Shown one piece after another: positions 10,380 through 58,677 of a stretch of DNA of 64,000 bases. The translations under genes and the position numbers were made by a program. How positions within the stretch are numbered: position 1 is the first letter of the stretch; every line of letters starts with the position of its first letter. The stretch spans positions 494,564-558,563 of the forward strand of contig JBAZNP010000001.1 in assembly GCA_041649155.1 (NCBI GenBank). Direction: 5' to 3'. The DNA comes from Patescibacteria group bacterium. Its GTDB lineage: Bacteria; Patescibacteriota; UBA1384; XYA2-FULL-43-10; 1-14-0-10-43-13. Below the pieces are notes generated by a model. The model was not told where the DNA came from. It saw nothing but the letters and a program-made list of their open reading frames with translations, and ran no database searches.

Positions 10380-10460
10380 GTCATTCCGACTCCCTGCGCT
10401 TTGTCGCAGGGGTGGAGAAATCTTATCAAAAGATTCCTCGACTGCGCTCGGGATGACAGC
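10380..10460 (+). repeat. palindromic element family 1 (GTCATTCCGAC...GCTCGGGATGAC), copy A
   Basis: 81 bp. Near-identical inverted copy at 12328-12408. Other copies listed below. Confidence 0.85.
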
Positions 10461-10519
10461 GTGTCGTTGCTTAAATTATAGGTTTAATTTTTTAAATCAA
10501 TATCTGTTATAATAATCTT

Positions 10520-12286
10520 ATGAATGAAATTATTTACTTAGAGCCATCAGAAGAAATTACTTCTGTAATTGACCGATTGAGAACCGTATCAGGAAATTCG
10601 GTTGCTTTTGTTATTCCGCGGGGCGCAACAATAGCTCAAAGTATTGTCAATTTAAAACTTCTGAAAAGAAGCGCAGCAGAGATGCAGAAAGAGATTTCAC
10701 TTGTGGCGACTGATAGGATTTCAAGAAATCTGGCTTCTCAAATTGGCCTAACGGTCTACTCGAAAGTCTCGGAAGCGGAAAAAGCTAAGCCTGTTGTTCC
10801 CGAAGCGAAAGTTGCGCAAAAAGATGAGCTTGATAGCGATAATGAAAATTCTCAGTTTAAAGTGAATAATTATTATCAGAATAAAAATAAAGAAGAGCCT
10901 GAAGAACCGGAAGAAGACGAAGAATTAAAAAGTGAAATCAAACAGATAGTCGAGGAACAGGATCAAGAAGAGGTTGGGGATACAGCAAAGCATGAGGTCC
11001 ATCATAATTCTTATAATGAGGAAGAAGATGATGAAGTTGAGATTAGAAAACGCCCAATCGTTGATAACGATCGCAACTATGAACCGCCAAAAGATAAAAA
11101 GATTATTCATCCAATGCCCAAGCCAAACGAAAAAAATTCTACTAACATAAAGGGATCAAGAAAAAAGATAATGATCTTTGTCTCTGTGTTTCTTCTGATT
11201 TCTCTAATTTCGTCTTATCTATTTTTACCTAGCGCTACAGCTAAAATACAAGTTAAAACTGAAGATTTTTCAACTGAAAAGGAAATTACGGTTGACCGTA
11301 GTGTAAAAGAGAAAAATACCAATAATCTAACTGTCTCAGGAAGTTTGCTTGAGCTGGAAAAAGAGAGTACAGAGCAATTTGATGCTACCGGTAAAAAAGA
11401 CATGGGAGAAAAGGCCACAGGAACATTAACTTTTAGTAATAATGCCGGCATTGATGATCAGATTGCTGCTGGTGCGATTGTAAAAAGTTCCGGTGGTGTG
11501 GAGTTTACTGTTGATCAGGCCGTGTCTGTACCAAAAGCATCATTAAATGCGGCAGGAGATAAGGTGGCCGGAAAATCATCCGGCAAAGTAACTGCCAAGA
11601 ACGCTGGCGAGAAGAGTAACCTGCCATCAACTTCCACTTATTCTGTGACTGGGAAAAACCTAATAACAGCATCAGGAGAAACTTCCGGAGGTGTCTCAAA
11701 AGAAGTTAAAATTGTAACAGAAGAGGATCTTACAAAGGCACAATTAGCTGTTAAAGAAATAATGTTAGATGCTGTTAAGAAAGATTTGGCCGATTTAGCC
11801 GATAAAGATAAGCTTTCTATTTTTGACAATGGTATTAGCAACGAGACGATCTCATTTAGCCCTTCTAAAAATATTAATGATGAAGCTGATAAATTTAGCT
11901 GCACGCTCAAATTGAAATTTTATGCGATCGGGTTTTCTAAAAAAGACCTGAATGATGTTTTGATTGCATCTTCAGAAAGTGGTCTTGGCGCTGATAAGAT
12001 GTTGATTGATCCAGAAGAAGCTGATATTACATATGACTTAATTGACAGCAGCAATGATAACGGAACTCTGAAGATTAAATCAAAATTAGTCGGCAAGTCC
12101 GGCCAGAAATTGGTTGAAGATACTATTAAAAATCAAATCAAAGGCAAGAGTGTAAATTCGGCTAAACAGATCATTCTGGGCAACAAAGATGTGGAGAAGG
12201 TGGATATAAGCGTTCGCTTTAGTCCGCTGAAGCGAATTCCACTCTTTGCTAAGAATATTAAGATAACTTTTGGGTTTGCAGAATAG
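10520..12286 (+). CDS. hypothetical bitopic membrane protein (acidic low-complexity linker, single TM, large extracytoplasmic domain)
   Basis: 588 aa. N-terminal globular segment, E/P-rich acidic stretch, TM IMIFVSVFLLISLISSYLFL. No recognisable family. Confidence 0.5.
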   Translation: MNEIIYLEPSEEITSVIDRLRTVSGNSVAFVIPRGATIAQSIVNLKLLKRSAAEMQKEISLVATDRISRNLASQIGLTVYSKVSEAEKAKPVVPEAKVAQKDELDSDNENSQFKVNNYYQNKNKEEPEEPEEDEELKSEIKQIVEEQDQEEVGDTAKHEVHHNSYNEEEDDEVEIRKRPIVDNDRNYEPPKDKKIIHPMPKPNEKNSTNIKGSRKKIMIFVSVFLLISLISSYLFLPSATAKIQVKTEDFSTEKEITVDRSVKEKNTNNLTVSGSLLELEKESTEQFDATGKKDMGEKATGTLTFSNNAGIDDQIAAGAIVKSSGGVEFTVDQAVSVPKASLNAAGDKVAGKSSGKVTAKNAGEKSNLPSTSTYSVTGKNLITASGETSGGVSKEVKIVTEEDLTKAQLAVKEIMLDAVKKDLADLADKDKLSIFDNGISNETISFSPSKNINDEADKFSCTLKLKFYAIGFSKKDLNDVLIASSESGLGADKMLIDPEEADITYDLIDSSNDNGTLKIKSKLVGKSGQKLVEDTIKNQIKGKSVNSAKQIILGNKDVEKVDISVRFSPLKRIPLFAKNIKITFGFAE

Positions 12287-12327
12287 AGACAATAAACTTT
12301 ATCAATAAATGTAATTGTTCATTCGCT

Positions 12328-12408
12328 CTGTCATCCCGAGCGAAGTCGAGGGATCTTTTGATAGGATTTCTCCACCCCTTCGACAAAGCTCAGGGAGTCG
12401 AAATGACA
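12328..12408 (-). repeat. palindromic element family 1, copy B (inverted relative to copy A)
   Basis: Its reverse complement matches 10380-10460 at about 90%. Confidence 0.85.
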
Positions 12409-12456
12409 ACAGGGTGAGCGCTTACTAATAAACAGATTGATACTTTAGATATTATT

Positions 12457-12879
12457 ATGATGTATTTAGGAATTGATTTTGGGAAGAAAAGAATTGGGTT
12501 GGCTTTGGGTCAATTGATTCCTAAGGGGGCAGGAGTAATTGACGGATTGAAAAGTCTGGAAGAAATTACTTCGACTATAAAAAATATTTGTCAAGAAAAT
12601 GAGGTTGATGAGATAGTCATCGGTTGGCCCAAAAAGCTGAGTGGGGATCCAGGCGATATTGCAGGGGATATAAAAATATTTTCCGAAAGTTTAAAAGAAA
12701 ATATTGGATTGCCAATTCGTTTTGAAGAAGAAGATCTAACCTCGGTTGAAGCGGAAGACATGATCAAGGAAAGCGGCAAGAGATTTAGCAGGGAAAGCGG
12801 CAAAACGGATGAGATTGCAGCTATACTCATACTTGAACGATATATTGATCATTTAAGCGAACCTAATAAGGAAAAGTGA
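12457..12879 (+). CDS. ruvX: Holliday junction resolvase-like RNase RuvX/YqgF
   Basis: YLGIDFGKKRIGLAL...IVIGWPKKLSGD pattern. 4-bp overlap with the downstream mltG, as in many bacteria. Confidence 0.85.
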   Translation: MMYLGIDFGKKRIGLALGQLIPKGAGVIDGLKSLEEITSTIKNICQENEVDEIVIGWPKKLSGDPGDIAGDIKIFSESLKENIGLPIRFEEEDLTSVEAEDMIKESGKRFSRESGKTDEIAAILILERYIDHLSEPNKEK

Positions 12880-13865
12880 TGAAGAAGACTATAAAAACTA
12901 TAATCACTTTGTTTTTAGTATTGTTGATTTTTTCAATTACCGGCTTTCTTTTCTATCTAAATTGGATCGTTCACACTCCTGTTGCTAAAGGAAGCAGCGA
13001 ATACAAGATTGTTGAGGTTAAAAAAGGCGAAGGCACTTTTCAAATTGCACAAAAATTGAAGAACAAAAATCTGGTTGCTTCTGACTGGGTTTTTTATTTA
13101 AATGCAAAGATTAAGTCAGGATCTCTTTCTGTCGGGTATTATAATCTGTCGCCAAGTATGACAATGCTTGATATTTATAACAAAATTTCTTCTGGGGACA
13201 CCAACATTGTGAAAGTCACTATTCCTGAAGGTTATCGCACAGAACAAATTGCACAAGTTCTAAATGAAAAAAGTGTGACAAATTATGAAAGTTTCATGGA
13301 AGCTGCTAAGAAATATGAAGGAAAGTTGTTTCCTGATACTTATTTTTTCCCAACCGGCATGTCAGATACTGATATTGTAAAAACAATGACCGATGATTTT
13401 TCCGAACGCACAAAAGATTTAAACGTTACAAATGAAGACCTTGTGATTGCTTCAATAGTTGAAAGGGAGACGATAAAAGATAATGAACGACCACTTATTG
13501 CCGGCGTTTATAAAAACAGGATAGTCAAGAGTATGAAACTGGAGGCTGACCCAACTGTCCAGTATGGGAAAGATAACTTGTCGGTCAAGTCTTTGTCTGG
13601 TGATGAACTTTTAAACTTCAAATTTTGGCAACCAATAACTTCTGCTGATTATAAAACAGTTGATTCTTCTTATAACACTTATTTAATATCCGGCCTTCCA
13701 CCGACGCCAATTTGCAATCCTGGCATCAAGAGCATTGAAGCAGCCATAAACTATGGGAAGCATAATTATATCTATTTCCTGCAGAACGGCGGCCAAATCT
13801 ACCCAAGCGAAACTCTTTCACAACATGACAAGTATAGACGAGACATTCTCGGGGCAAAGAACTAA
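12876..13865 (+). CDS. mltG: endolytic murein transglycosylase MltG (YceG family)
   Basis: N-terminal TM followed by a YceG-like domain (VTIPEGYRTEQIAQVL). Confidence 0.8.
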   Translation: MMKKTIKTIITLFLVLLIFSITGFLFYLNWIVHTPVAKGSSEYKIVEVKKGEGTFQIAQKLKNKNLVASDWVFYLNAKIKSGSLSVGYYNLSPSMTMLDIYNKISSGDTNIVKVTIPEGYRTEQIAQVLNEKSVTNYESFMEAAKKYEGKLFPDTYFFPTGMSDTDIVKTMTDDFSERTKDLNVTNEDLVIASIVERETIKDNERPLIAGVYKNRIVKSMKLEADPTVQYGKDNLSVKSLSGDELLNFKFWQPITSADYKTVDSSYNTYLISGLPPTPICNPGIKSIEAAINYGKHNYIYFLQNGGQIYPSETLSQHDKYRRDILGAKN

Positions 13866-13924
13866 AAGATTGGGCTAGTAATTTGATTTAGTTTGTATAT
13901 CGCTATCTTGGATACTTACTCTTA

Positions 13925-14021
13925 GCTTGACCGTTGGGATTTTTTGTGATGGACAATTAAGTCTAGATGTGTTATAAGTTTAATGGTGATTATTATTACT
14001 CAATGAGGGGGGGATTTGTGA
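13925..14021 (+). repeat. paralogous 5' leader (CTTGACCGTTGGGATTTTTT ... TTATAAGT ... GGGGGGATTTGTGAATG), copy 1
   Basis: Collinear similarity to the mreB leader at 14921-15007. Confidence 0.65.
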
Positions 14022-14861
14022 ATGTTGGAACAAAAAGCTATTGATTGCATCGTTTCTGAAGTTAGGCGAAAATTGGCCCTCCAGAAATCAGGAGAGCCGC
14101 AAACACGAACAACACAAACTGAATTTGCTACACTTTTGGATTTAAAAGCAAGAGAAGTTTGTCAGATTGTTAAAATTTGTCTTACAGAAAAGGAGCAACT
14201 GCAATGGCGGCGTCTTCCGTTGCAGCAGTGGCAGAGAGGGCCAAAGTTTTGGAAAATCATTGAATATGCTCGCTCATGTTTGGCGGAGGTCCGTCGAGGT
14301 AATCGATCATTTGTTCCCACTTTGAGATTTATCGGTAAGGAGTTCAATCTCTCTAGAGAGAGAGCCAGGCAAGTTCTTGCCGCCGGATTGACTGAGGTTG
14401 AGATTAGAGATTGGAAGAGATATAGCAGCAAGGGCCGTTCCAAGAAAGTAAAACAATTACGCGAGCAAAGCAAGGAAACCACAAACAAACAAAATGCGTC
14501 TAAGCGGCTGATTAGGTATTGTCGGTTTCTGATTCTACTTTTGAGAATTGGTAGGATCAAGAGGTTGCCTTCGATGCCGACAATCGCTAAGAAGTTAGAA
14601 ATTGGCCGTAGAGTCGGATGTTATCTCATGGAGAAGCTTTTAACTCTGGAAGAAAGGAGTTACTGGTCCAGATCGGTAACGATAAATCGGGTGTCTGCCT
14701 GTTTATCCGAAGAAGCGAAGCGGTTTCGTGACGGTGAAATTGATGTCTTGCCAGCAAAAAAAGACATTTGCGAGGAGTTTGGAGTATCTGGTTCGTATAT
14801 TTACTCCGTTGTTATTCCCAAGCTTTCCTCGGCGGACCAAAAAATTTGGAGAAGTTATTAA
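14022..14861 (+). CDS. hypothetical basic protein with three sigma-70-region-4-like HTH repeats
   Basis: Motifs FIGKEFNLSRERARQVL, PTIAKKLEIGRRVGCYL and ICEEFGVSGSYIYSVV. GC about 44%. Confidence 0.55.
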   Translation: MLEQKAIDCIVSEVRRKLALQKSGEPQTRTTQTEFATLLDLKAREVCQIVKICLTEKEQLQWRRLPLQQWQRGPKFWKIIEYARSCLAEVRRGNRSFVPTLRFIGKEFNLSRERARQVLAAGLTEVEIRDWKRYSSKGRSKKVKQLREQSKETTNKQNASKRLIRYCRFLILLLRIGRIKRLPSMPTIAKKLEIGRRVGCYLMEKLLTLEERSYWSRSVTINRVSACLSEEAKRFRDGEIDVLPAKKDICEEFGVSGSYIYSVVIPKLSSADQKIWRSY

Positions 14862-14920
14862 ACTGATGTAGAGTGAGCCGAAAGTTAGGCTCACTTCTTT
14901 TTTTGTTTGTAGAAGTTTCC

Positions 14921-15007
14921 TCCGTCTTGACCGTGGGGATTTTTTTATCTATGCTAAAAACAGTCGTCATTATAGTCAACGATGATTAATTCAGGGGTAT
15001 TTTTTGA
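14921..15007 (+). repeat. paralogous 5' leader copy 2 (mreB upstream; CTTGACCGTGGGGATTTTTTT-N-TATGCT)
   Basis: Contains a plausible -35 TTGACC and -10 TATGCT. Confidence 0.65.
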
Positions 15008-16060
15008 ATGAAAAATCCATTTAGCGCAATATTTAATAAGTTCTCACATGACATTGGCATTGACTTAGGTACTGCTAATACTTTGGTGTATGTTCGTGGT
15101 AGGGGGATCGCCATTGAAGAGCCTTCTGTTGTTGCGATCAATAAGCGAACTAAAGAAATCCTAGCCATCGGTCAGGAAGCAAAAAGAATGGTGGGGCGAA
15201 CTCCAGCCCATATCGTAGCGGTCAGGCCTCTGGTGGACGGGGTAATTTCTGATTTTGAAATAACCGAGCAGATGCTCAGATATTTTTTCGATCGGGTCCA
15301 TAAGGAAAAGTTTACTCTTCTTCCTCGTCCCCGAGTTGTGATCGGTATTCCTCATAGCGTTACTGAAGTTGAGAGAAGGGCGGTAGAGGAAGGGGCGATC
15401 AATGCCGGTGCCAGAGAAGTATTTCTTATCGAAGAACCAATTGCTGCCGCGATTGGTGCTCGTTTACCAATTCAGGACGCTTCCGGCAGCATGATCATCG
15501 ACATTGGCGGCGGCACAACAGAGGTGGCTGTAATGTCACTTGGCGGGGTTGTGGCTTCAAGATCGCTTCGAATTGCTGGAGATGAGATGAATGAAGATAT
15601 TATTCAATATGCAAGAGAAAAATTTAATCTGGTTTTGGGCGAAAGAACAGCCGAGGATATTAAAATCAAGATTGGTTCAGCTTGCGAGATGAAAGAGAAA
15701 CTGGAAACCCCGATGAGAGGAAGAAATCTTGTTACCGGTCTTCCTAAAGAAATCATTGTTAATGATGAGCAGATAAGGGAAGCAATTAAGAAATCTCTGA
15801 ATGCGATTATGGAAAGCATTCGGGTTACGATGGAAGAAACTCCACCTGAACTTTTGGCTGATATAATGGATAAGGGTATTGTTCTGGCTGGCGGCGGCGC
15901 TCTATTGCGCGGGTTGGATAAAAAAATATCTGAAGAGACAGAAACTCAGGTTCATATTGCAGATGATCCCTTAACTGCTGTGGTTAGGGGAACGGGAATA
16001 GTTCTGGAGGATTTGGATCTACTGTCCAATGTGCTTTTGCCGAAGGAATTTGGACGATAG
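15008..16060 (+). CDS. mreB: rod shape-determining protein MreB
   Basis: GIDLGTANTLVYV, DIGGGTTEVAV, LAGGGALLRGLD. Confidence 0.92.
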   Translation: MKNPFSAIFNKFSHDIGIDLGTANTLVYVRGRGIAIEEPSVVAINKRTKEILAIGQEAKRMVGRTPAHIVAVRPLVDGVISDFEITEQMLRYFFDRVHKEKFTLLPRPRVVIGIPHSVTEVERRAVEEGAINAGAREVFLIEEPIAAAIGARLPIQDASGSMIIDIGGGTTEVAVMSLGGVVASRSLRIAGDEMNEDIIQYAREKFNLVLGERTAEDIKIKIGSACEMKEKLETPMRGRNLVTGLPKEIIVNDEQIREAIKKSLNAIMESIRVTMEETPPELLADIMDKGIVLAGGGALLRGLDKKISEETETQVHIADDPLTAVVRGTGIVLEDLDLLSNVLLPKEFGR

Positions 16061-16163
16061 AAAAAGCTAAATGTTACTTTATTTACTTTATTGCTGCGGA
16101 ACTCGTTTTGCTCGAACAGTCCTCGCTAATAAAACCAACAAAATAACAGATAAATGCTGTGTT

Positions 16164-16252
16164 GTCATTCCCGCGAAGGCGGGAATCTAGAAACTATTAT
16201 ATGGATCCCAGGGCTTCACTCTCAAGCTGCACCGCCGAACCCGAGGATGACA
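16164..16252 (+). repeat. palindromic element family 1-related, copy F
   Basis: GTCATTCCCGCGAAGGCGGGAATC...CCGAGGATGACAG. Confidence 0.7.
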
Positions 16253-16259
16253 GAAGAGA

Positions 16260-17072
16260 ATGAGGTATCTGGCTCGAATAACAAATATCATCCTACTTAG
16301 TATGAAAAAGACAAAACTAATTTTAATTATCGTGGTTCTTTTAATTGTTTTAGTGGTTCCGTTCAAAAAAACCATTAATGTATTTTTAGTGAATAGTACG
16401 ACTGGCATTTCCAAAAGCTTCTCCAATGCGGGCAGAAAAACCAAAAGCGTGTTTTCTTTTGTTTCTGAAATATCCAGATTAAAAAAGCAGAATGCCGAAT
16501 TATCTGAAAAAATACTCTCTTTTGATGTCGATAGAAGCAAAATCTCCGAACTGGAGTATGAAAATTCCCTTCTCAAAAAAGAGCTCGGATATATGGAGGA
16601 GCACAAAGATTATTCTGTTATTCCATCAAGAATTATCGGAAGAGAGCCAACCAGTTTTCTTGACTATGTTATGATTGACAAGGGCTCAAAGGACGGAGTA
16701 ATTAAGGATGCGGCGGTGATATCGGGTGGGGCTTTGGTAGGTCAGATTAAAGAAGTATACGACAATCAATCAAAGGTAACTTTAATTACCAGCAAGGACT
16801 CAATTATTTTAGCCATGATACAAAAATGCCGATCAAAAGGAATATTGCGGGGAGGAATTTCCGGTCTTGTGCTTGAAGACATAACAAGAGAGGCGGAATA
16901 CCAACCTGGTGATTACATTGTAACTTCAGGTTTGGACGGCCAGATGAAAGAAGGAATTTTAATCGGCAAAGCAGGAAATTTGCAGTCGTCATCTTCTGAA
17001 TTATTTAAAAATATTTCTGTTGAGCCGGTTGCTGATTTGTCGAAGTTGGAATTAGTTTTTGTATTAAAATAA
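16260..17072 (+). CDS. mreC: rod shape-determining protein MreC
   Basis: N-terminal TM, coiled-coil LKKQNAELSEK..., C-terminal beta domain. Alternative start at 16302 (MKKTK). Confidence 0.8.
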   Translation: MRYLARITNIILLSMKKTKLILIIVVLLIVLVVPFKKTINVFLVNSTTGISKSFSNAGRKTKSVFSFVSEISRLKKQNAELSEKILSFDVDRSKISELEYENSLLKKELGYMEEHKDYSVIPSRIIGREPTSFLDYVMIDKGSKDGVIKDAAVISGGALVGQIKEVYDNQSKVTLITSKDSIILAMIQKCRSKGILRGGISGLVLEDITREAEYQPGDYIVTSGLDGQMKEGILIGKAGNLQSSSSELFKNISVEPVADLSKLELVFVLK

Positions 17073-17127
17073 AGATAGTGATTCCTTGTTATTTCATTGA
17101 AGAAGGGAATGATAAAAGACTATAAAA

Positions 17128-17628
17128 ATGAAATTTAATTTAACTAAAAGTTTATTTTTGGTTCTACTCGCCTTCATTTTGTCAATTTTAGACACATCTT
17201 TTTTTAGTTTTATCCCGATTTTAGGCGCGACTATAATTTCTTCATACATAACAATTATTAATTTTTCGATAACAGGCAAAACTAACGACTTTTTAATTTT
17301 TACAATCTCGGTTATTTTTTTCTTTTCAGCTTTTTCCTCTTTACCTGTTTGGATGATTGTTTTAACTTTTTTATTGATACCTTATTTAATTCATTATGTT
17401 AAAAATCATTTTTTCCCAGATCCATCAGCTCCATTCTCTATTGCATTTTTTATGGCTGGGACATTTTTATTTTCACTTATTTCACTTATCTACGGGAAAG
17501 AATGGAATATGACAGGAGTTATTTTAGTGTCCAGTTTTATTTTTGTTAATTCGTTGTTTGGAGTTTTTCTTTACTATATTTCCAGAAAGATTAAGAAAAA
17601 TTTTACCGGAAAGGATATTAACTTTTAA
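17128..17628 (+). CDS. mreD: rod shape-determining protein MreD-like membrane protein
   Basis: 166-aa polytopic ORF in the canonical mreBCD-mrdA position. Confidence 0.55.
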   Translation: MKFNLTKSLFLVLLAFILSILDTSFFSFIPILGATIISSYITIINFSITGKTNDFLIFTISVIFFFSAFSSLPVWMIVLTFLLIPYLIHYVKNHFFPDPSAPFSIAFFMAGTFLFSLISLIYGKEWNMTGVILVSSFIFVNSLFGVFLYYISRKIKKNFTGKDINF

Positions 17629-17629
17629 G

Positions 17630-19564
17630 ATGGATATTTTTGGAAATTTTTCTAAGTTAAAGGGCGATAAGAACAAGAGACGAATTCATAAAAAAGTCGA
17701 ACTAGATTATTCTTATTCTGAAACTGTTCTGAACTCAGTTGGCAAAGTGGAAGATAAGAGTTCGGCATCGACATCGTCCGGCAACATGAAAGCGCTTTTG
17801 CTTCTGTTTTTTTGTATATTGGGCGCAAGACTTTTTTTTCTTCAGGTGGTGAAAGGGGAATCAAATCAAAAGTTGGCTGAGGGTAATAGGGTGAGACCGA
17901 GAGTGATAGAATCAACAAGGGGGATTATTACTGATAAAGACGGGGTGTGGCTGGCCAGAAATGAACCGAACTTTGCTTTGGCTGTCTATCCTTCTGATCT
18001 ACCGAAAACTAAACCGGAACGTGAGGCGGTGTATGATAAACTATCAGAGATATCTGGAGAAACCGCTCAAGAGATAAAATCTTCTTCGGAGGAAAACGGT
18101 CTTTTGTCTCTTGATATGGTAACGATCAAGGACAATGTGTCTCATGACGACGCTTTAATTCTAGAGAAGAAGATAGCGGACCTACCAGGCGTTATTGTGG
18201 CAAAAAAAGCCAGTAGGGAATATACTATTTTACCAGGACTGGCTCACATACTGGGATATACAGGAAAAATTTCTCCGGAAGACATTGAAAATAACCCTGA
18301 TTATTTTCTATCGGATCGTGTTGGGAAAACCGGACTTGAGTACGAGTATGAAGAGTATCTACGCGGTAAACATGGTGTTGAACAGATTGAGGTTAATTCC
18401 AAAGGCAGTATTGTTAGGGTCCTGGTTCAGGATGGAAGTCGTGAACCGGTACCAGGTTATGATCTCTCTCTTTATCTTGATCGTGGTCTTCAGCAAAAAA
18501 CGGGTGACGCGTTAAAAAACGGAATTGAAGAAGCAAAAAAAATAACCGGTGATACTTCCATTAATTCTGGCGTGGCCATGGTTATGGACGTTAACTCGGG
18601 TGGAATTTTATCAATGGTTTCTTTGCCGGATTATGACAATAATCTTTTTTCGACCCAGATATCCTCGGCTGATTATCAGAAATTGATCAGTGATGAATCT
18701 TATCCGATGTTTGACAGGGCAACTAAAGGTACTTACCCACCGGGTTCGATTGTCAAAATTGTGATGGCTGCTGCTGGTTTGTCTGAAAAGGTGATCACGC
18801 CAAATACTTCATTTGATACTCCTTCTGAAATAAAAATTGGTGACTACACTTTTCCGGACTGGAAGGACCACGGTGTTACCGACATTGAAACGGCAATTGC
18901 GGAATCGAATAACATATTCTTTTATAGTATAGGTGGGGGCTACGATAAGATAAAAGGGATTGGCATAGACAGTATTAAAAAATATTGGGAACTTTTTGGC
19001 CTAGGAGAAAAAACGGGAGTAGATTTGCCTAACGAAGCGGAGGGTTTGCTTCCTGATTCGGAATGGAAAGAGAAGGTCAAGGGTGAACCTTGGTATATTG
19101 GCGATACCTATCATGTATCGATCGGTCAGGGTGATCTCTTGGTTACTCCAATTCAAATGTTAAGGGCAACTGCCACTATTGCGAATGGGGGGACATTATT
19201 GCAGCCTCAGCTTGTTCAAAAAATTAAAGACCAGGAAGGTAATATAGTAAAAGAGTTCGGACCAAGGGTAGAGAGAGAGAATTTTATTAGCTCTGATATT
19301 ATAAAGACAATTCAGGAGGGAATGAGATTAACTATTACTGGCGGTTCGGCCAAAAATTTGAATGATTTGCCTGTCTCAGTAGCTGGCAAGACGGGTACAG
19401 CTCAGTTTTTAAACAATCAGAAAACTCATGCATGGTTTGAATGTTATGCTCCATATGAAAATCCTGAAATTGCCATCGTAGTGTTAATCGATGGCGGCGG
19501 CGGCGGCCATGAAATTGCCGCTCCGGTGGCAAAGGAGATTTTAAACTATTATTTTACGAGATAA
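17630..19564 (+). CDS. mrdA: penicillin-binding protein 2 (transpeptidase)
   Basis: SxxK (GSIVK), SNN (ESNNIFF), KTG (AGKTGTAQ). Start ATG at 17630 is in-frame inside ORF 17543. Confidence 0.85.
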   Translation: MDIFGNFSKLKGDKNKRRIHKKVELDYSYSETVLNSVGKVEDKSSASTSSGNMKALLLLFFCILGARLFFLQVVKGESNQKLAEGNRVRPRVIESTRGIITDKDGVWLARNEPNFALAVYPSDLPKTKPEREAVYDKLSEISGETAQEIKSSSEENGLLSLDMVTIKDNVSHDDALILEKKIADLPGVIVAKKASREYTILPGLAHILGYTGKISPEDIENNPDYFLSDRVGKTGLEYEYEEYLRGKHGVEQIEVNSKGSIVRVLVQDGSREPVPGYDLSLYLDRGLQQKTGDALKNGIEEAKKITGDTSINSGVAMVMDVNSGGILSMVSLPDYDNNLFSTQISSADYQKLISDESYPMFDRATKGTYPPGSIVKIVMAAAGLSEKVITPNTSFDTPSEIKIGDYTFPDWKDHGVTDIETAIAESNNIFFYSIGGGYDKIKGIGIDSIKKYWELFGLGEKTGVDLPNEAEGLLPDSEWKEKVKGEPWYIGDTYHVSIGQGDLLVTPIQMLRATATIANGGTLLQPQLVQKIKDQEGNIVKEFGPRVERENFISSDIIKTIQEGMRLTITGGSAKNLNDLPVSVAGKTGTAQFLNNQKTHAWFECYAPYENPEIAIVVLIDGGGGGHEIAAPVAKEILNYYFTR

Positions 19565-19573
19565 CCATAAGGT

Positions 19574-19661
19574 GTCATTGCGATATCATGAAATGAAGAA
19601 GCAATCTATTTTATTCAAAGATTGCTTCGTCTCCAGTAAGAACTGGATGACTCGCAATGAC
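19574..19661 (+). repeat. palindromic element family 1 variant (GTCATTGCGA...TCGCAATGAC), copy M
   Basis: Inverted termini plus an internal hairpin GAAGCAATC...GATTGCTTC. Confidence 0.65.
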
Positions 19662-19675
19662 ATAGTTGCGTGCAC

Positions 19676-19705
19676 CATTGACAAAAATTGATCAAATAGG
19701 GTAGT
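19676..19705 (+). promoter_or_regulatory. putative promoter for greA (TTGACA-N18-TAGTAT)
   Basis: Hexamers read directly. Confidence 0.35.
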
Positions 19706-19774
19706 ATTCTGATGTTACTTGTTAAGTTGCACAAGATTTATATGCTTGTGTATTTATTTTTTCGGGGGTATACC

Positions 19775-20227
19775 ATGAGCAACATTTTAACCAAAGAGGG
19801 GCTAGAAAAACTTAAAAAAGAGCTTGATGAAATCAAGAACGTTAAGCTCAAAGAAGTGGCTGTAAAAATCAAAGAGGCGAAAGATCTTGGCGATTTATCT
19901 GAGAATGCTGAATACCATGAAGCAAAAAATGAGCAGTCATTTTTGTATGGTAGAGCCTTGAAACTAGAGCAAAAAATTAAAGATGCACAAGTCATAGAAA
20001 AACATGCAACCAATATTGTTGAAGCTGGTGCCGTTGTTGAAGTCGAAAATGATGGCGAGAAAATGAAGTTTGAAATTGTTGGTTCAGACGAATCAGATCC
20101 TCTTAACGGTAGAATTTCAATTGATTCTCCTATTGGTTTTGCTTTAGAGGGATGCAAAGTTGGCGACAAAGTTCCTGTAACAACTCCTGGCGGAAAAACT
20201 GAATACAAGATATTAAGCATAGCTTAA
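19775..20227 (+). CDS. greA: transcription elongation factor GreA
   Basis: LTKEGLEKLKKELDEI...GDLSENAEYHEAK. RBS GGGGGT precedes the ATG at 19775. Confidence 0.9.
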   Translation: MSNILTKEGLEKLKKELDEIKNVKLKEVAVKIKEAKDLGDLSENAEYHEAKNEQSFLYGRALKLEQKIKDAQVIEKHATNIVEAGAVVEVENDGEKMKFEIVGSDESDPLNGRISIDSPIGFALEGCKVGDKVPVTTPGGKTEYKILSIA

Positions 20228-20275
20228 TATCGGTATCAAGTATTAAGTATTACGTATCAAGTATTATATAAAAAT

Positions 20276-20301
20276 CGCCCGCGATAAGTTGGGCGTTTTT
20301 T
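20276..20301 (+). terminator. rho-independent terminator after greA
   Basis: CGCCC-gcgataagtt-GGGCG followed by TTTTTT. Confidence 0.7.
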
Positions 20302-20399
20302 GTATTTCCTGTGCCTAATATCTGATACTGAATACTAGATACTGGTTTTTGGTTATGCTATAGTGAAGTCAGAAAATAGTAATATTTGCAGGCAAAAAC

Positions 20400-21872
20400 A
20401 TGAACGAAAAAATTGGTGCAACTGAAAAAGAACTAATTGAATTTAGAAAAAAGAAACTGGCCGAAATAAAGGAATTGGGATCAAACCCTTATCCTTCAAA
20501 ATCTAGCAAGGATCATTCCGCCAAAGAAATATTGAATGAGCAAAAAGAGCTCATTTCTTCTGAAAAGAAAGTCACCGTTGCAGGCCGCTTGATGGCGCTT
20601 CGCGGTCATGGCAGGCTTGTTTTCGCGGACATTGCAGATGAATCAGGAAAAATGCAGGCAGTTTTGAAAGCGGATGAATTAACTAAAGATTTTAATCTTG
20701 TTTCCATGCTTGATCTTGGTGATTTCGTTGAGGTTTCCGGCACTGTTTTTGTGACCAAAGCTGGTGAAACTTCTGTTTTGGCTTCCGGTTTAAAAATATT
20801 GTCAAAAGCATTGAGACCGCTTCCTGAAAAACGCCATGGAATTCAGGACGAAGAAACTAAATTTCGAAAGAGATACTTGGAGTTTGCCATTAGTCCTGAA
20901 TCCAGAGAAATGTTTATTAGAAAAGCGAAGTTCTGGCAGGCAACCAGAGATTTTCTTGTTGAAAGAGGATTTTTAGAAGTTGAAACTCCTGTGCTTGAAA
21001 ATACTGCAGGCGGGGCAGACGCAAATCCATTTATCACTCATCATGACGCATTGGATATTGATGTATATTTGCGAATTTCAATGGGTGAGCTTTGGCAAAA
21101 GCGTTTGATGGTTGGCGGATTTGAAAAAACCTTTGAAATTGGCCGTCAATTTAGAAATGAGGGTATTTCCAGAGAGCATTTGCAGGATTACTCCCAAATG
21201 GAATTTTATTGGGCTTATGCCAACTACGAAGATTCGATGAAATTGGTTGAAGACATGTACAAATATATTGCCGAAAAAGCGTTTGGCACTCAAAAATTCA
21301 AAATCGGAGAATTTGACGTTGATTTAAGCGGAAAATGGGAGAAAATAGATTATGCGGAGACAATTAAGTCAAAGCAGGGCATTGATGTTCTAGCAGCTAC
21401 TGACGAAGAGATCAAAAATAAGCTTTCCGAGCTTAAAGTTAAATTTAATCCAAATGATCGTCGGGGACGTTTGATCGATACGCTTTGGAAGCAAATTAGA
21501 AAAGAAATTGCTGGTCCGGTATTTTTGATAAATCATCCAGTGGAAGTATCTCCATTGGCGAAGAGAAAAGAGGATAATTCAAAGCTAGTCGAGCGCTATC
21601 AGGTAATTTTGGCTGGCTCCGAAATGGGTAATGGTTACTCGGAGTTAAACGATCCAGAAGATCAGGCAGGAAGATTTCAGGAACAGGCCAAGATGCGAGA
21701 GGCTGGTGATAAGGAAGCTCAAATGCACGATGCAGACTTTATTGAAGCTCTCGAGTATGGAATGCCACCAACAACAGGTTTTGGTTTCTCAGAGAGATTA
21801 TTTTCATTTTTAGCTGACAAGTCAGCTCGCGAAACCCAAATGTTCCCGTTGATGCGACCAGATCACAAGTGA
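20400..21872 (+). CDS. lysS: lysine--tRNA ligase (class II)
   Basis: OB-fold N-terminus, motif 2 FEIGRQFRNEG, motif 3 GMPPTTGFGFSERL. Confidence 0.9.
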   Translation: MNEKIGATEKELIEFRKKKLAEIKELGSNPYPSKSSKDHSAKEILNEQKELISSEKKVTVAGRLMALRGHGRLVFADIADESGKMQAVLKADELTKDFNLVSMLDLGDFVEVSGTVFVTKAGETSVLASGLKILSKALRPLPEKRHGIQDEETKFRKRYLEFAISPESREMFIRKAKFWQATRDFLVERGFLEVETPVLENTAGGADANPFITHHDALDIDVYLRISMGELWQKRLMVGGFEKTFEIGRQFRNEGISREHLQDYSQMEFYWAYANYEDSMKLVEDMYKYIAEKAFGTQKFKIGEFDVDLSGKWEKIDYAETIKSKQGIDVLAATDEEIKNKLSELKVKFNPNDRRGRLIDTLWKQIRKEIAGPVFLINHPVEVSPLAKRKEDNSKLVERYQVILAGSEMGNGYSELNDPEDQAGRFQEQAKMREAGDKEAQMHDADFIEALEYGMPPTTGFGFSERLFSFLADKSARETQMFPLMRPDHK

Positions 21873-21983
21873 TTTATCATTTACCATTTATCAATTTTCA
21901 TTAATTTACCATTTGAAAATTGATCATTGAAAATTTATTGATAATTGAGAACTGAGCAATGATCATTGCTCCGAAGGAGCTCT

Positions 21984-23246
21984 ATGTTAGATATAAAATT
22001 TATTAGAGAAAATGTGGAGTTAGTTAAAACGAATGCCAAAAACAGGCTTTCAACCGTTTCGATTGATGAACTTTTGGAATTGGACAGAAAGAAAAGAGAG
22101 CTAGAAACTACAATAGATACTCTTAGAGCCGAAAGAAATGCTAATTCAAAAAATAAGCCTGATTCTAAAATTATATCCAAAATGAAAGAGTTAGGACTGA
22201 AAATATCTGATTTTGAAAAAGAATTGGGTCCAATTAATGAAAAATTTCAAGACCTTCTTTTGCAGGTGCCAAACTTAACTCATCCGGAGGTTAAAGTAAG
22301 TGAGGATGAGAATGATAATGTCATACTTGAAGAAAAATTCAAACCAACAAAATTTGATTTTATTCCGTTAGATCATGTTCAATTGGCGGAAAAACTAGAC
22401 CTTATAGATTTTGAACGAGGAATAAAAGTCTCCGGAGCAAAATTTTTCTACTTTAAAAATGAAGTTGCACTTCTGGAGCTCGCGTTAACACATTATGCTA
22501 TTGATGTTGCCATGAAGCATGGTTTTACTCCTATAATCACTCCTGACTTAGCTAAGAGGGATATTTTAGACAAAATGGGCTACAATCCACGTGGCGAATC
22601 AACACAAGTCTACAATATCGAAAATTCAGATTTAAGCTTAATCGGAACGGCAGAAATTACGATGGGCGGTTATCACAAAGACGAGGTATTAAAAGAGGAA
22701 GAATTGCCTAAAAAATATGTTGCGCTTTCACATTGTTTTAGAACGGAAGCCGGAGCTTATTCAAAGTTTTCTAAGGGAATTTTCAGGGTACATCAGTTTA
22801 CTAAAGTAGAGATGTTCGAATACACGACTCCTGAAAAATCGGAAGAAGCTCACAAAGAGTTGTTGGAAATTGAGAAAGAAATATTTGAAGGATTAAAAAT
22901 TTCTTTTCGTGTTATTGACCATTGTACTGCGGATTTAGGTGCGCCATCATATAGGACATACGACTTGGAAGCTTGGATGCCAGGGAAGCCGAACAGGGAA
23001 GGGAAACTTGGTGATTGGGCTGAGATTACTTCGACTTCAAATTGTACCGACTATCAAGCTCGTGGTCTGAATATTAAATATCAAACAAAAGATGGTGTAA
23101 AAAAATATTTGCATATGATCAACGGTACATCGATCGCAATGACGAGACCGATCATTGCAATACTGGAGAATTTTCAGCAAAAAGATGGTAGTATAGAAAT
23201 TCCGGAAGTTTTACATAAGTATTTATCGTTTAAAAAAATTGGTTAA
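21984..23246 (+). CDS. serS: serine--tRNA ligase
   Basis: MLDIKFIREN... coiled-coil N-terminus, class II core. RBS AAGGAG. Confidence 0.9.
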   Translation: MLDIKFIRENVELVKTNAKNRLSTVSIDELLELDRKKRELETTIDTLRAERNANSKNKPDSKIISKMKELGLKISDFEKELGPINEKFQDLLLQVPNLTHPEVKVSEDENDNVILEEKFKPTKFDFIPLDHVQLAEKLDLIDFERGIKVSGAKFFYFKNEVALLELALTHYAIDVAMKHGFTPIITPDLAKRDILDKMGYNPRGESTQVYNIENSDLSLIGTAEITMGGYHKDEVLKEEELPKKYVALSHCFRTEAGAYSKFSKGIFRVHQFTKVEMFEYTTPEKSEEAHKELLEIEKEIFEGLKISFRVIDHCTADLGAPSYRTYDLEAWMPGKPNREGKLGDWAEITSTSNCTDYQARGLNIKYQTKDGVKKYLHMINGTSIAMTRPIIAILENFQQKDGSIEIPEVLHKYLSFKKIG

Positions 23247-23372
23247 CTAGTTCGTTGGAGCCCTCCTTCGTTCTGGTTTAGCTCAAAACTTACAGGTTTG
23301 CAGCTAAATCTTCTCTACGGAGGGCGCGACAGGACTATTGTAAATTAACATTAAAGAGTCGCGGAGGTAATT

Positions 23373-23777: not shown

Positions 23778-23789
23778 ACAGGTAAGAAA

Positions 23790-23914
23790 TAGTTAAAGTC
23801 CAAAATCCTAATTACAAATTACAAATAAAAATCTAAATTTCAAATTCTAAATTATTTGAACATTTAAGCATTTGGCATTTTATTTGAAATTAGATATTAG
23901 AGCTTAGAAATTTA
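23790..23914 (+). repeat. AT-rich intergenic repeat (same family as 2921-3000)
   Basis: aaattacaaattacaaataaaaatctaaat...ttggcattttatttgaaattagat. Confidence 0.55.
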
Positions 23915-23959
23915 TTGGGGAATTATAACTTGTTTCTTCGCCTTAAATGCAAGGAAATT

Positions 23960-26930: not shown

Positions 26931-26942
26931 TAAAGGAGGCAA

Positions 26943-49177: not shown

Positions 49178-49312
49178 GTCATTTCGAGCCATTCCGAACC
49201 CGCTGCTGGGCGGATTTGAGGAAGGCGACCTGCCTGCCGGCAGGCAGGGAAATCCTATCGCATACGCGATGACGGGATCCCTCGACTCGCATTCACTCGC
49301 TCGGGATGACAT
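49178..49312 (-). repeat. palindromic element family 1, copy G (135 bp), in-frame upstream extension of prmC
   Basis: GTCATTTCGAGCC...GCTCGGGATGACAT with an internal palindrome GACCTGCCTGCCGGCAGGCAGG. Confidence 0.8.
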
Positions 49313-55034: not shown

Positions 55035-55108
55035 GTCATTTCGACCCCCCGGCTTGTCGGGGTTGGAGAAATTTTATCAAAAGATCCCTCGACTACGCTC
55101 GGGATGAC
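55035..55108 (+). repeat. palindromic element family 1, copy H
   Basis: GTCATTTCGACCCCCCGGCTTGTCGGGGTTGGAGAAATTTTATCAAAAGATCCCTCGACTACGCTCGGGATGACAATGG. Confidence 0.85.
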
Positions 55109-55120
55109 AATGGAGAAACT

Positions 55121-56451: not shown

Positions 56452-57942
56452 ATGACAAAAAAAATATCAGACGTCGCATCCACCGAAGATGGAGCAGGCG
56501 CCCCTGCTCTCGATGAAAGCGAAATGCGGGGAAAAATCAAAGACTTTCCCAAAGCTCCGGGGATTTATCAATTTATCGATGATGACGGTAAGATTTTGTA
56601 TATTGGCAAAGCGAAAAATCTGCAGAATAGGATAAAATCATACTTTTTAAAAGAAGTTGGCAGGGGTCCGGCAATTGATTTAATGATCCAACTAGCAAAA
56701 GATATCAAATGGACAACAACGGAGAGCGAGATTGAAGCCATTTTGCTTGAAGCGGAATTAATTAATAAACTGAAACCGAAGTATAATGTTCGTTTGAGGG
56801 ATGATAAGTCATTCTTGGTAATTAAGATTGCCAAGAAAATTTCTAATTCCAAATATTCTTCGAGCGATAGCGAGAAGTCTGGAAATAGAGTTCTCGGCAA
56901 AGCCTCGAACAATAATATTGATAATTGGCAAAATTTTCCATGTGTTGAGCTTGTTCGATTTAAGGATGTTGATTTTTCTGACAAGTCCGCGGATTACTTT
57001 GGGCCGTACCCATCGGGACTGCTTTTAAAGAAATCGATAAATTATTTAAGAAAAGTATTTCCTTTTCGGGATTGTTCTAAAACAAAATATAATACATACC
57101 GCAAAAAAGGCCGACCCTGCATTTATGGTGACATACGGGTTTGCACCGCGCCTTGTGTCGGCTGGGTAAATGAGAAAGAATATCAAAAAAATATTAATTA
57201 CTTTAAAGACTTTTTGCGCGGTAAAAAGGGGTCTATTATTAAAAAATTAAAAACTCAAATGCAAGATCTTAGTAAGGCTAAGCGTTTTGAAGAAGCTGGT
57301 CTTGTTCGAAATAAGCTTAATGCTTTGGATCACATGAAAGATGTTGCGGTTGGCTTGCGAGACGATGCTTTTAACGGTGAAAACATTATTTTTCCAAGAA
57401 TTGAGTGTTACGACATTTCAAATATTGGGGAGTCATATGTTGTTGGTTCCATGGTTGTATTTAAAGACGGAAAACCTAGCACAGACGATTATCGTAAATT
57501 TAAGATTAAGAATAAACCTACATTGTCATTCCAGCCTGTAGCTCGAGAGCTGGAATCCAGGAAAGGGGAAACTGGATCCCAGATCGAGTCTGGGATGACG
57601 CATAGTGGAGAAAGCGATTTATCAAGATTGAACGAAATGCTAGACCGCCGTTTTAAAAACGATTGGCCGCTTCCAAATTTGATCGTGATTGATGGTGGAG
57701 AAAATCAGTTAAGAGTGGCAACAGATATATTAAAAAAACATAGCTTAAATATTCCGGCAGTTTCTATTTCAAAAGGGAAAAGAAGAGATAAAAACGAATT
57801 TCATTTTTCTGATGAAGCAACCGCAAAATATATTAGTAAAAATGTTTCTTTGCAAAATGTGCTGATTCAAGCACGTGACGAAGCCCATCGCTTTGCCATA
57901 AATTATTATCGATCTCTGCATAAAAAAGGGTTGTTTAAATGA
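56452..57942 (+). CDS. uvrC: UvrC-like excinuclease (GIY-YIG + UvrC core + RNase H-like domain; no C-terminal HhH2)
   Basis: GIYQFIDDDGKILYIGKAKNL, UVR-like FEEAGLVRNKLNAL, ECYDISNIGESYVVGSMVVFKDGKP, IDGGENQL, RDEAHRFAI. Carries two in-frame repeat elements. Confidence 0.8.
   Translation: MTKKISDVASTEDGAGAPALDESEMRGKIKDFPKAPGIYQFIDDDGKILYIGKAKNLQNRIKSYFLKEVGRGPAIDLMIQLAKDIKWTTTESEIEAILLEAELINKLKPKYNVRLRDDKSFLVIKIAKKISNSKYSSSDSEKSGNRVLGKASNNNIDNWQNFPCVELVRFKDVDFSDKSADYFGPYPSGLLLKKSINYLRKVFPFRDCSKTKYNTYRKKGRPCIYGDIRVCTAPCVGWVNEKEYQKNINYFKDFLRGKKGSIIKKLKTQMQDLSKAKRFEEAGLVRNKLNALDHMKDVAVGLRDDAFNGENIIFPRIECYDISNIGESYVVGSMVVFKDGKPSTDDYRKFKIKNKPTLSFQPVARELESRKGETGSQIESGMTHSGESDLSRLNEMLDRRFKNDWPLPNLIVIDGGENQLRVATDILKKHSLNIPAVSISKGKRRDKNEFHFSDEATAKYISKNVSLQNVLIQARDEAHRFAINYYRSLHKKGLFK
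56477..56531 (+). repeat. in-frame palindromic element family 3, copy in the UvrC-like gene N-terminus
   Basis: CATCCACCGAAGATGGAGCAGGCGCCCCTGCTCTCGATGAAAGCGAAATGCGGGGA encodes ASTEDGAGAPALDESEMRG. Confidence 0.8.
57525..57603 (+). repeat. palindromic element family 1-related, copy I, in-frame inside the UvrC-like gene
   Basis: GTCATTCCAGCCTGTAGCTCGAGAGCTGGAATC...GGATCCCAGATCGAGTCTGGGATGACGCAT, close to the intergenic copy at 58601-58677. Confidence 0.8.
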
Positions 57943-57949
57943 GAAAAAC

Positions 57950-57980
57950 CCGCCTTTTTGGGGCGGGCCTTCGGTGGCAG
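57950..57980 (-). terminator. rho-independent terminator (lipoprotein gene; also ends the UvrC-like transcript)
   Basis: CCCGCC-tttttg-GGGCGGG with AAAAA/TTTTT flanks. Confidence 0.7.
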
Positions 57981-57985
57981 AAAGA

Positions 57986-58441
57986 TCACTTCGTAGCACG
58001 TGCATGTTCAATGGCCTTCACCTTCCACTCCGTGCCGATAGTATCGGCTACTTCCTGAGCGAAGCCTATCGCGTCTATGTTGTCGGTAAGGTTCTCATGG
58101 AAAGTGTTACCGTTCTTGTCGGTAATAGTCACATTTGTGCTAAGTGAGCTAGGCTTAGAGGTGATTACCAGACTAGCAGTTTTCCTTGAGGCTCGCTGAG
58201 CTCCATTCATGATAAGGACCTCAAATACCTTTGTGGGGATTTCTTGCCCTTTCGATGCATTGAATATAGTCTCGTGCACCAGATTATTAGCAAGAAGAGC
58301 GTACTGGGCCGACACAGGGAGTTTTTTGAACTCCTTGACCATGGCGACTTGTTCGATAGTAAGAGGCTTTGTTTCCTCTTTGTTGCCACAACCGGCAATA
58401 ATGACGATAATTACTACTAAAATTGCTAATCTCAGTCTCAT
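57986..58441 (-). CDS. hypothetical lipoprotein
   Basis: Signal peptide MRLRLAILVVIIVIIAGC with a lipobox. RBS GAAAGG. The ORF extends to 58492. Confidence 0.55.
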   Translation of the reverse strand: MRLRLAILVVIIVIIAGCGNKEETKPLTIEQVAMVKEFKKLPVSAQYALLANNLVHETIFNASKGQEIPTKVFEVLIMNGAQRASRKTASLVITSKPSSLSTNVTITDKNGNTFHENLTDNIDAIGFAQEVADTIGTEWKVKAIEHARATK

Positions 58442-58600
58442 AGTTACCTTTCGATTCCACACCTCGTTCCGAGGCCAGTGGAGTGAAAACACTATTTACC
58501 TTATATCATATTTATATGTTTTTGTCAATATTTATTCAATTCTGGATTGCGAAAAGGTAATTAGCGTATTATAATGGAAGTACTTAAATAAAATTCGGTC

Positions 58601-58677
58601 GTCATTCCAGTCTGTGGCTTGGAGCTGGAATCTATATAAATAATCTTCTGGATCCCAGATCAAGTCTGGGATGACGC
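58601..58677 (+). repeat. palindromic element family 1-related, copy J
   Basis: GTCATTCCAGTCTGTGGCTTGGAGCTGGAATC...GGATCCCAGATCAAGTCTGGGATGACGC. Confidence 0.8.

Follow-up and report, generated by a model that had tools for sequence, protein, structure and literature searches.

The palindromic elements scattered through a 64-kb stretch of a Patescibacteria genome (below, the window) are probably non-autonomous inverted pairs of Ssn-related motifs (SRM), hairpins of the kind known in Neisseria as the Neisseria Transformation Sequence (NTS) and dRS3 repeats; we give this reading a probability of about 0.7. The elements consist of two convergent hairpin modules, the same modules occur in many phyla, and in other genomes such modules bracket a gene, ssn, for a small GIY-YIG nuclease. 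Copies come and go among close relatives, and some lie in frame within housekeeping genes as lineage-specific insertions. From this combination we infer that an Ssn-type nuclease mobilizes the elements.

The window corresponds to about 494.4-558.4 kb on a metagenome contig of 603 kb, ENA ERZ27247363 k141_656675. Its SecA is identical to a protein of a 'Patescibacteria group bacterium', and by SecA comparison its nearest named relatives are Candidatus Berkelbacteria. Together with 21 kb from the same contig (L249), 85 kb of this genome were read. The comparisons below use two relatives, L002 and L003, with 90% and 91% SecA identity, respectively, and two contigs that carry ssn units, L243 (Berkelbacteria-like) and L251 (Berkelbacteria). 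L243 was ruled out as a close relative of the window genome: with a GC content of 47.7% and an RsmA that is 57% identical, it belongs to a different lineage.

A first-pass annotation of the window had listed 11 intervals with the inverted termini GTCATYCCGAS...STCGGRATGAC, and a palindromic element is present in all 11. The sequence GTCATYCCGAS, with at most one mismatch, has 17 matches in the window, compared with 2.03 expected, a number reached in none of 100 shuffles. One further copy, a solo module, lies at 27552-27576 (-). Because nhmmer splits the copies into subfamilies, the terminus consensus is limited to one of these, F1; the family as a whole is heterogeneous. The F1 matches are 10380-10459, 12328-12407 (-), 25949-26026, 55035-55109 and 29554-29658 (-), with E values from 1e-25 to 8e-13, and 49247-49311 is a partial match to the F1 model. 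The F2 matches are 57525-57602, 58601-58677, 16164-16231 and 35132-35201 (-), with E values from 3e-21 to 6e-6. The copy at 19574-19661, with the termini GTCATTGCGA...TCGCAATGAC, is a third subtype. As annotated, most copies sit at gene boundaries: apart from those in secA, in a UvrC-like gene and in the open reading frame (ORF) of prmC, all are in intergenic spacers. The letters given to these three copies, C, I and G, do not fit the annotation's own list, in which they are the 5th, 10th and 8th entries. Single terminus-like matches at 25032, 34367, 46192 and 60059 have no partner and were set aside as chance matches or remnants. The copies, with nhmmer E values and folding of single-stranded DNA (ssDNA) where they apply, are as follows.

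10380-10459 (+): intergenic F1 doublet, between a PilM/MreB-like gene (end 10357) and the next gene (start 10520); E 1.3e-24; left module GTCATTCCGAC..GGAGAAATC (+), right module GTCATCCCGAGCGCAGTCGAGGAATC (-); ssDNA fold -19.5 kcal/mol, z -4.5.
12328-12407 (-): F1 doublet, reversed, in the spacer before the RuvX gene; E 4.6e-25; modules at 12330-12355 (+) and 12373-12407 (-).
16164-16251 (+): F2 doublet between mreB and mreC; E 4.5e-14; matches the SRM pattern; site empty in L002 and L003.
19574-19661 (+): third-subtype doublet between the PBP2 and greA genes; basal stem ATTGC/GCAAT; ssDNA fold -25.3 kcal/mol, z -9.9.
25949-26026 (+): F1 doublet of 78 nt, in frame in secA, residues 664-689.
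27552-27576 (-): solo module GTCATCCCCGACTTGATCGGGGATC upstream of an ftsE-like gene; matches the SRM pattern; conserved in L003.
29555-29658 (-): diverged, longer F1 doublet between ftsX and an M23 peptidase gene; E 8e-13.
35058-35202 (-): composite of a degenerate module (35058-35086) and the two ends of a gene-less ssn unit (35127-35202), ATCATCCCCGTGAAGACGGGGATCCAAGATAGTT..TATTAGTAGATTCCCGCCTTCGCGGGAATGACA.
49178-49310 (+): doublet of 133 nt in the prfA-prmC spacer (both genes -); ssDNA fold z -4.0.
55035-55108 (+): F1 doublet between an M50 peptidase gene and a class II tRNA synthetase gene; E 1.3e-23.
57525-57599 (+): F2 doublet of 75 nt, in frame in a UvrC-like gene.
58601-58675 (+): F2 doublet upstream of a CofD-family gene; E 2.9e-20; ssDNA fold z -3.3.

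An element is built from two convergent hairpin modules, one on each strand, that read inward, and it is their heads on opposite strands that produce the apparent GTCAT...ATGAC terminal inverted repeat. Each module runs 5'-GTC, stem, loop or inner hairpin, return arm and then C, a form seen in all true window modules, for instance GTCATTCCCGCGAAGGCGGGAATC (16164, + strand) and GTCATCCCAGACTCGATCTGGGATC (57575-57599, - strand). The head is GTC(A/G)T, the stem starts AT(T/C)(T/C)C, and the return arm ends (G/A)(G/A)AT before the C. The stem is usually AT plus 6 bp, or alternatively a 5-bp basal stem with a variable inner hairpin; the short loops are of the GAAG or CTTGA type. As ssDNA, most copies fold more stably than shuffles (z -2.4 to -4.5, and -9.9 for the 19574 copy), in the form of either a single long hairpin or two module hairpins.

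The F2 right module has at least 130 matches in metagenome contigs and, among the matches listed, 67 of 130 have a GTCAT at most 130 nt upstream. We collected 28-mers starting at the nearest upstream GTCAT beside these pattern matches, a set not picked for pairing. Among the matches listed, an 8-bp hairpin at position 4 is present in 59% of 58 distinct 28-mers, compared with 7% of shuffles, and the stem sequences are diverse. For 49 of the 28-mers, 61.5% (4-nt loop) and 53.8% (5-nt loop) of cells are paired, compared with 26-41% in slid registers; covariation is 0.26 and 0.21, compared with 0.06-0.13 in other registers, and the observed values were attained by none of 500 shuffles. The stems of unselected partner modules thus show compensatory changes at a fixed geometry. 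Overall, this pattern of sequence variation indicates that the module hairpin is under selection.

The modules appear, by sequence, to be of a kind already known: NTS/SRM hairpins of the Ssn system, here in a paired form that resembles MITEs (miniature transposable elements with inverted repeats). The NTS, CGTCATTCCCGCGMAVGCGGGAATCYRG, extends the long-known dRS3 repeat, and the broader SRM class is described by the pattern HGTCWYN(0-2)YYVSBRHN(0-5)WNVSBRGN(0-2)RNCYNB (Chenal et al., Nat Commun 2025, PMC11893778). SsnA, a GIY-YIG nuclease of 94 aa, binds NTS/SRM hairpins as ssDNA only and not as RNA, and its cut falls a few bases upstream; for cutting, the trinucleotide that precedes the palindrome counts most, and for binding, the C that follows it (PMC11893778). 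These critical bases are exactly the invariant GTC and C of the window modules. Three window modules match the published SRM pattern (16163-16190, 27549-27577 and 35175-35202), compared with 0.1 expected, and that at 16163-16190, TGTCATTCCCGCGAAGGCGGGAATCTAG, agrees with the NTS consensus at 27 of 28 bases, differing in the first.

The family is spread widely. BLAST searches with an NTS-type doublet found modules that are 94-100% identical in Neisseria gonorrhoeae, Azospirillum, Sphingobium and others, and many of the F2-right-module metagenome matches listed are doublets with an NTS-type left module. More than 300 SRM copies have been reported in Rickettsia (PMC11893778). A scan of species-representative genomes for the F1 core, with a pattern so loose that about half of its loci are chance matches, located full-length F1 elements in Saccharibacteria, Vampirococcus, Komeilibacteria, Clostridia, Bacteroidales, Micavibrio, Deltaproteobacteria, Syntrophobacter, Binatia, Planctomycetes and others. 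A minimal F1 form of 57 nt, GTCATTTCGACCGAAGGGAGAAATCTTTCTTAGATCCCTCGCATTCGCTCGGGATGAC, recurs. A BLAST search of a plasmid collection with an F1 copy gave no match. In the literature we found no description of such repeats in Patescibacteria; the host lineage, and the behavior in coding sequence that recalls Rickettsia palindromic elements (RPEs), are new. ORFs that read through the repeats yield the recurring peptides SFRPKGEIFLRSLAFARDDG, CHFDRREKSFLDPSHSLGMTG and SSRANARDLRKISPFGRNDK (loci L005-L124 and L125-L242), and these repeat-derived peptides create spurious 'protein families' across unrelated phyla.

What links the modules to a nuclease is their arrangement in other genomes. Among the F2-module loci listed, 14 of 118 contain an ORF of about 95 aa of the GIY-YIG type; 12 of the 14 have modules that directly adjoin the ORF, mostly in the order module (+), gene, module (-). 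Convergent modules likewise bracket a GIY-YIG gene of 94-95 aa in other contigs, including L243 and L251. This protein family has very many members, often on short contigs. One of them, P0121, is 51% identical (E 2e-23) to a 94-aa ORF of N. gonorrhoeae that has Y6, Y17 and E64, the residues mutated in the published work (PMC11893778), and nine NTS copies around it in 2.7 kb; the counterparts in P0121 are Y7, Y18 and E65. By homology, the proteins of about 95 aa from the Candidate Phyla Radiation can be assigned to the Ssn family. The Neisseria sequences used in this comparison are two 2.17-Mb N. gonorrhoeae chromosomes filed as plasmids in PLSDB (NZ_CP119140.1 and NZ_CP119142.1). NCBIfam and PDB sequence searches with the small GIY-YIG protein returned weak matches only, and a regular-expression search for GIY-YIG motifs returned none. 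Clusters of other ORFs near the elements were rejected as partner genes; they are mostly spurious ORFs that read through the repeat.

One window copy retains traces of such a unit. In L251 the ssn gene is bracketed on the left by ...ATCCCCGTGCAGACGGGGATCCAAAATAGTT and on the right by ...TATTTAG, of which the final TAG is the ssn stop codon, followed directly by TAGATTCCCGCCTTCGCGGGAATGACA. The window sequence at 35127-35202 is ATCATCCCCGTGAAGACGGGGATCCAAGATAGTT-TCAAC-TATTAGTAGATTCCCGCCTTCGCGGGAATGACA. Both of its ends match the L251 unit, not only in the hairpins but also in subterminal bases outside them and in the region of the stop codon, and the 285-nt ORF between the ends has been lost. 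Such loss of the ORF with retention of both unit ends is what marks a MITE that arose through internal deletion, and 35127-35202 is thus a derivative of this type. The doublet in rsmA of L249 also keeps ACTATAGTGGATCC, the bases found just inside the right module of the L243 ssn unit, past the stop codon. In L243 the module-ssn-module unit lies between a G5-domain gene and rsmA, directly upstream of the latter; in L249 the same two genes are adjacent and the unit is absent.

Comparison of the window with its relatives reveals how unstable the copies are. In the 15.5 kb of L002 that are syntenic with the window there is not a single module; the 19574 copy is among those absent. Three of the window's copies, those in secA and at 19574 and the solo module, are also present in L003; this relative lacks the 16164 and 35058 copies (the 35058 spacer is empty) and has several copies of its own elsewhere. 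In the spacer between ftsX and the M23 peptidase gene, both have a doublet but the two differ. Judging from these alignments, copy turnover is rapid among relatives with 90-91% SecA identity. We also observed that the start of mreC downstream of the 16164 element (window 16252-16300), MRYLARITN.., is wholly different from that in L003 (about 2170-2230), MKKTKLILI..; the insertion at 16164 may have replaced it.

For the copies within coding sequence, the first-pass annotation had proposed in-frame insertion into essential genes, in the manner of RPEs, and for SecA and UvrC comparison with homologs bears this out. The true start of secA is the ATG at 23960, which gives a protein of 945 aa (the ORF has 960 aa). 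The copy at 25949-26026 contributes 26 codons, residues 664-689, VISTPRIDSRVEKSPVEDPSTSVGMT. The window and the 91% relative both have this segment, in two independent assemblies, and four homologs that are 82-90% identical lack it; the ortholog alignment therefore identifies it as lineage specific, not ancestral. Similar peptides recur at the same loop in more distant homologs. In an AlphaFold2 model of SecA, residues 653-694 have a predicted local distance difference test score below 50 and no secondary structure, and they lie between the helices 602-649 (the long scaffold) and 698-716; alignment of the window SecA with B. subtilis SecA structures breaks at the insert position. The insert is thus predicted to occupy a disordered linker.

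In the UvrC-like gene, the copy at 57525-57599 contributes 25 codons in frame, (L)SFQPVARELESRKGETGSQIESGM(T), between YRKFKIK and SDLSRLNEML (the SDLxxLxEML helix), where it interrupts the RNase H-like endonuclease domain between two stretches of it. This segment, too, is lineage specific: it is absent in 36 of 39 homologs, and one homolog with 64% identity has the same insert with a nested ACLPAGR segment. A third case comes from RsmA in L249, where CHSRSSRESTIVDPRLRGDD is the product of a 60-nt copy; throughout the lineage, the peptides that elements have added to RsmA homologs are many and varied, and they sit at two or three loop hotspots. The three coding copies, of 78, 75 and 60 nt, are all multiples of 3 in length and use three different frames; short copies have no stop in two to four of the six frames.

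The reported 45-codon extension of prmC does not belong with these insertions. The element at 49178-49310 does form the first 45 codons of the longest prmC ORF, but the first ATG of that ORF is the element's own ATGAC terminus, the Pfam domain PrmC_N starts at residue 53, and another ATG (M48) stands 6 nt past the element. The true start is likely to be M48, and this copy is an intergenic one that happens to be open in frame.

Further intragenic copies were observed. RsmA of another Berkelbacteria-like lineage (L243 1976-3067; also L198 1925-3067) has at least three in-frame element-derived segments, including VISTPRGQSGVEKS.. and CHSRLDLESKLVDPSLRWDDK. In L249, solo modules at 8359-8385 and 12897-12921 are within a UvrD-like helicase gene and a TP_methylase gene, respectively. 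An NTS-type module lies within ileS of a Sphingopyxis indica replicon (H5, NZ_CP076395.1); intragenic copies therefore exist outside Patescibacteria too. Some elements also contain palindromes of their own. Nested in the 49178 element is a GC-rich perfect mini-palindrome of 20 nt, CCTGCCTGCCGGCAGGCAGG (window 49229-49248), and related ones occur in the L003 copy of the 19574 element (TCCGCCAGCTGGCGGA, about 5520-5535, where the nested palindrome is 13 nt), at L249 1236-1249 and in an L002 spacer. The peptides PPAGG and CLPAGR, small insertions in some SecA and UvrC homologs, match such mini-palindromes, which look like a second, smaller kind of inserted palindrome.

Taken together, these data suggest the following model. 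The window copies would be the gene-less form of the module-ssn-module unit, with at least one of them (35127-35202) having arisen by internal deletion. Each module would fold once the DNA becomes single stranded, during replication, repair or uptake; an Ssn-type nuclease would bind the folded module, with the GTC, the palindrome and the 3' C as its contacts, and cleave a few bases beyond it; and cuts on opposite strands outside both modules would release or nick the whole pair. In this way copies could spread and turn over in trans, served by an ssn gene that we presume to be somewhere in this genome. Copies in coding sequence would persist only if their length is a multiple of 3, the frame used is free of stops and the site is a tolerant surface linker, and those that persist would add 20-26 residues to SecA, UvrC and RsmA. 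A broader and more tentative proposal, one we would not yet favor, is that Ssn units are a new class of mobile element with a small ssDNA-specific GIY-YIG 'transposase', that the window pairs are their MITEs, and that they are a general source of in-frame peptides, pervasive in Patescibacteria and possibly the origin of RPEs.

Several observations weigh against the proposal that the window elements are Ssn-related pairs moved by such a nuclease. No ssn, DUF123 or transposase gene was found in the 64-kb window, and none was seen in the 21 kb of L249, as judged by precomputed Pfam labels only. No F1 element stands beside an Ssn-type gene in the fetched loci; the single gene bracketed by F1-like modules is a DUF123 gene (PF01986, GIY-YIG clan, E 8e-24) in a Deltaproteobacteria contig (L051 4220-5040), and on this single case a DUF123 protein may be the nuclease partner of F1-type elements. 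The published SRM pattern fails to cover about 20 other window modules, among them every F1 module. Nor does it cover most of the modules that flank ssn genes in other contigs, so the pattern is narrower than the family and unusable as a membership test. The ssn gene occupies a single stable locus in Berkelbacteria, across many samples, and in Neisseria, a placement that suits a host gene better than an active insertion sequence. The demonstrated activity of Ssn is ssDNA cutting only, and neither transposition nor joining is among its demonstrated activities (PMC11893778). Finally, in the L002 and L003 alignments no window copy has a clean empty site or a target-site duplication; the flanks of the relatives have diverged, which accounts for both.

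These points raise the possibility, which we regard as real but doubtful as a full account, that the hairpins are targets kept by the host: a chromosomal Ssn would cut incoming or exposed ssDNA and so tune transformation and recombination, with the repeats spreading mainly by recombination. NTS and SsnA have a role of this kind in N. meningitidis (PMC11893778), the stable Berkelbacteria locus is what would be expected, and DNA-uptake-type functions are encoded in the window and L249 (PilM-like and T2SSE proteins). Yet host-kept targets leave unexplained the paired inverted modules with remnants of a deleted gene, the insertions within essential genes, and the rapid gain and loss at differing sites in relatives with 90-91% identity, and here too no ssn gene was seen in 85 kb of this genome. 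The host-kept role and the mobile-element reading are not mutually exclusive.

The remaining explanations fare less well. The first-pass annotation had suggested that at operon junctions the elements supply structured RNA; such RNA could serve in termination, in attenuation or in the stabilization of mRNA. That 10 of the 12 window copies are in short spacers between co-directional genes, and that most fold better than shuffles, would suit such a role, but we consider it unlikely: the copies occur in both orientations (12328 and 29555 are reversed), no T-run follows any of them, no terminator-like site in 9500-29499 overlaps a copy although ordinary terminators are present at other positions (such as 14871 and 20276), an Rfam gathering scan returned three tRNAs only and nothing at the elements, and SsnA binds ssDNA rather than the RNA form (PMC11893778). 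That copies lie in coding sequence, and that unrelated phyla have the same sequences, points instead to an element that acts at the DNA level. Repetitive extragenic palindromic (REP) sequences or their hairpin doublets (REPINs), moved by REP-associated tyrosine transposases (RAYTs, of the IS200/IS605-like Y1 type), or target hairpins of an IS110-type recombinase, are further candidates: the inverted pair of hairpins is like a REPIN, and a phage recombinase is known to target dRS3 (PMC11893778). This is very improbable here, as the module head is GTC and not GTAG, and a Y1 transposase or IS110 gene occurs neither in the window nor next to the elements of about 240 fetched loci, where the GIY-YIG gene is the only recurrent neighbor. 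The least credible idea is that of the original annotation, a lineage-specific palindromic family of independent origin that converged with RPEs. The in-frame behavior does resemble that of RPEs (PMC10969869), but near-identical elements across many phyla, including full-length F1 copies, the NTS-like module at 16163-16190 and the BLAST matches in Neisseria, Azospirillum and Sphingobium, imply that the family did not evolve independently in this lineage.

Other features of the window deserve brief mention. Its GC content is about 38%, the GC skew is positive along its whole length, and the + strand holds nearly all genes. The alanyl-tRNA synthetase ORF (6645-8456) has only 603 aa, with tRNA-synt_2c and tRNA_SAD domains, whereas the usual bacterial enzyme is much longer. 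An ORF of the 23S rRNA-intervening-sequence protein family (PF05635, E 2e-38) at 61920-62276 (-) stands alone beside ABC transporter genes. A sigma-70 family gene and three consecutive STAS-domain ORFs are on the minus strand, at 36791-37717 (-) and 40052-41345 (-), in a region that is otherwise plus-strand.

The unexplained palindromic repeats of an uncultivated, reduced genome can now be tied to an enzyme-repeat system characterized in 2025. The gene-less derivatives, the presence or absence of a unit at one syntenic site and the fast turnover fit the published idea that Ssn units are like insertion sequences; were they in truth a new class of transposable element, the finding would gain considerably in weight. 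Element-encoded peptides in SecA, UvrC and RsmA extend RPE-like remodeling of proteins beyond Rickettsia. There are also consequences for the annotation of metagenomes, through spurious ORFs, false N-terminal extensions (as for prmC) and 'hypothetical protein' families inflated by repeat peptides such as SFRPKGEI, LGMT and RGNDK; the repeats probably break assemblies as well.

Among known systems, the NTS/SRM repeats with SsnA, including dRS3 and the arrays of Neisseria intergenic mosaic elements (NIME; PMC11893778), share several features with the window elements: the same GTC-palindrome-C module, convergent modules around a single-domain GIY-YIG gene of 94-95 aa that is (in other genomes) 51% identical to Neisseria SsnA, and a wide spread across phyla with abundance in small-genome bacteria. 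In contrast, the window modules are mostly tight, gene-less inverted pairs of 57-135 bp; most have stems outside the SRM pattern (CCCAGA, or TTCGAC plus an inner hairpin); in-frame copies in essential genes are not described in that work; and Patescibacteria, the host group here, are not mentioned in it. MITEs are similar in their small size, in their terminal inverted repeats (here GTCAT...ATGAC) and in arising by internal deletion of a gene-carrying unit with the same ends, and REPINs in that each element is a hairpin doublet. Unlike in either, the associated gene encodes a GIY-YIG nuclease rather than a DDE or Y1 transposase, and no target-site duplication is seen; compared with REP/REPIN sequences and their RAYTs, there is no 5' GTAG and no recurrent Y1 gene near the elements. 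RPEs (Ogata et al., 2000; reviewed in PMC10969869) are likewise short palindromic repeats with many copies in a small genome, and they insert in frame into unrelated housekeeping genes, adding a peptide at tolerant sites, as in SecA, UvrC and RsmA here. They differ in host phylum, in length (about 150 bp, compared with 57-135 bp) and in having one conserved peptide frame where three are used here.

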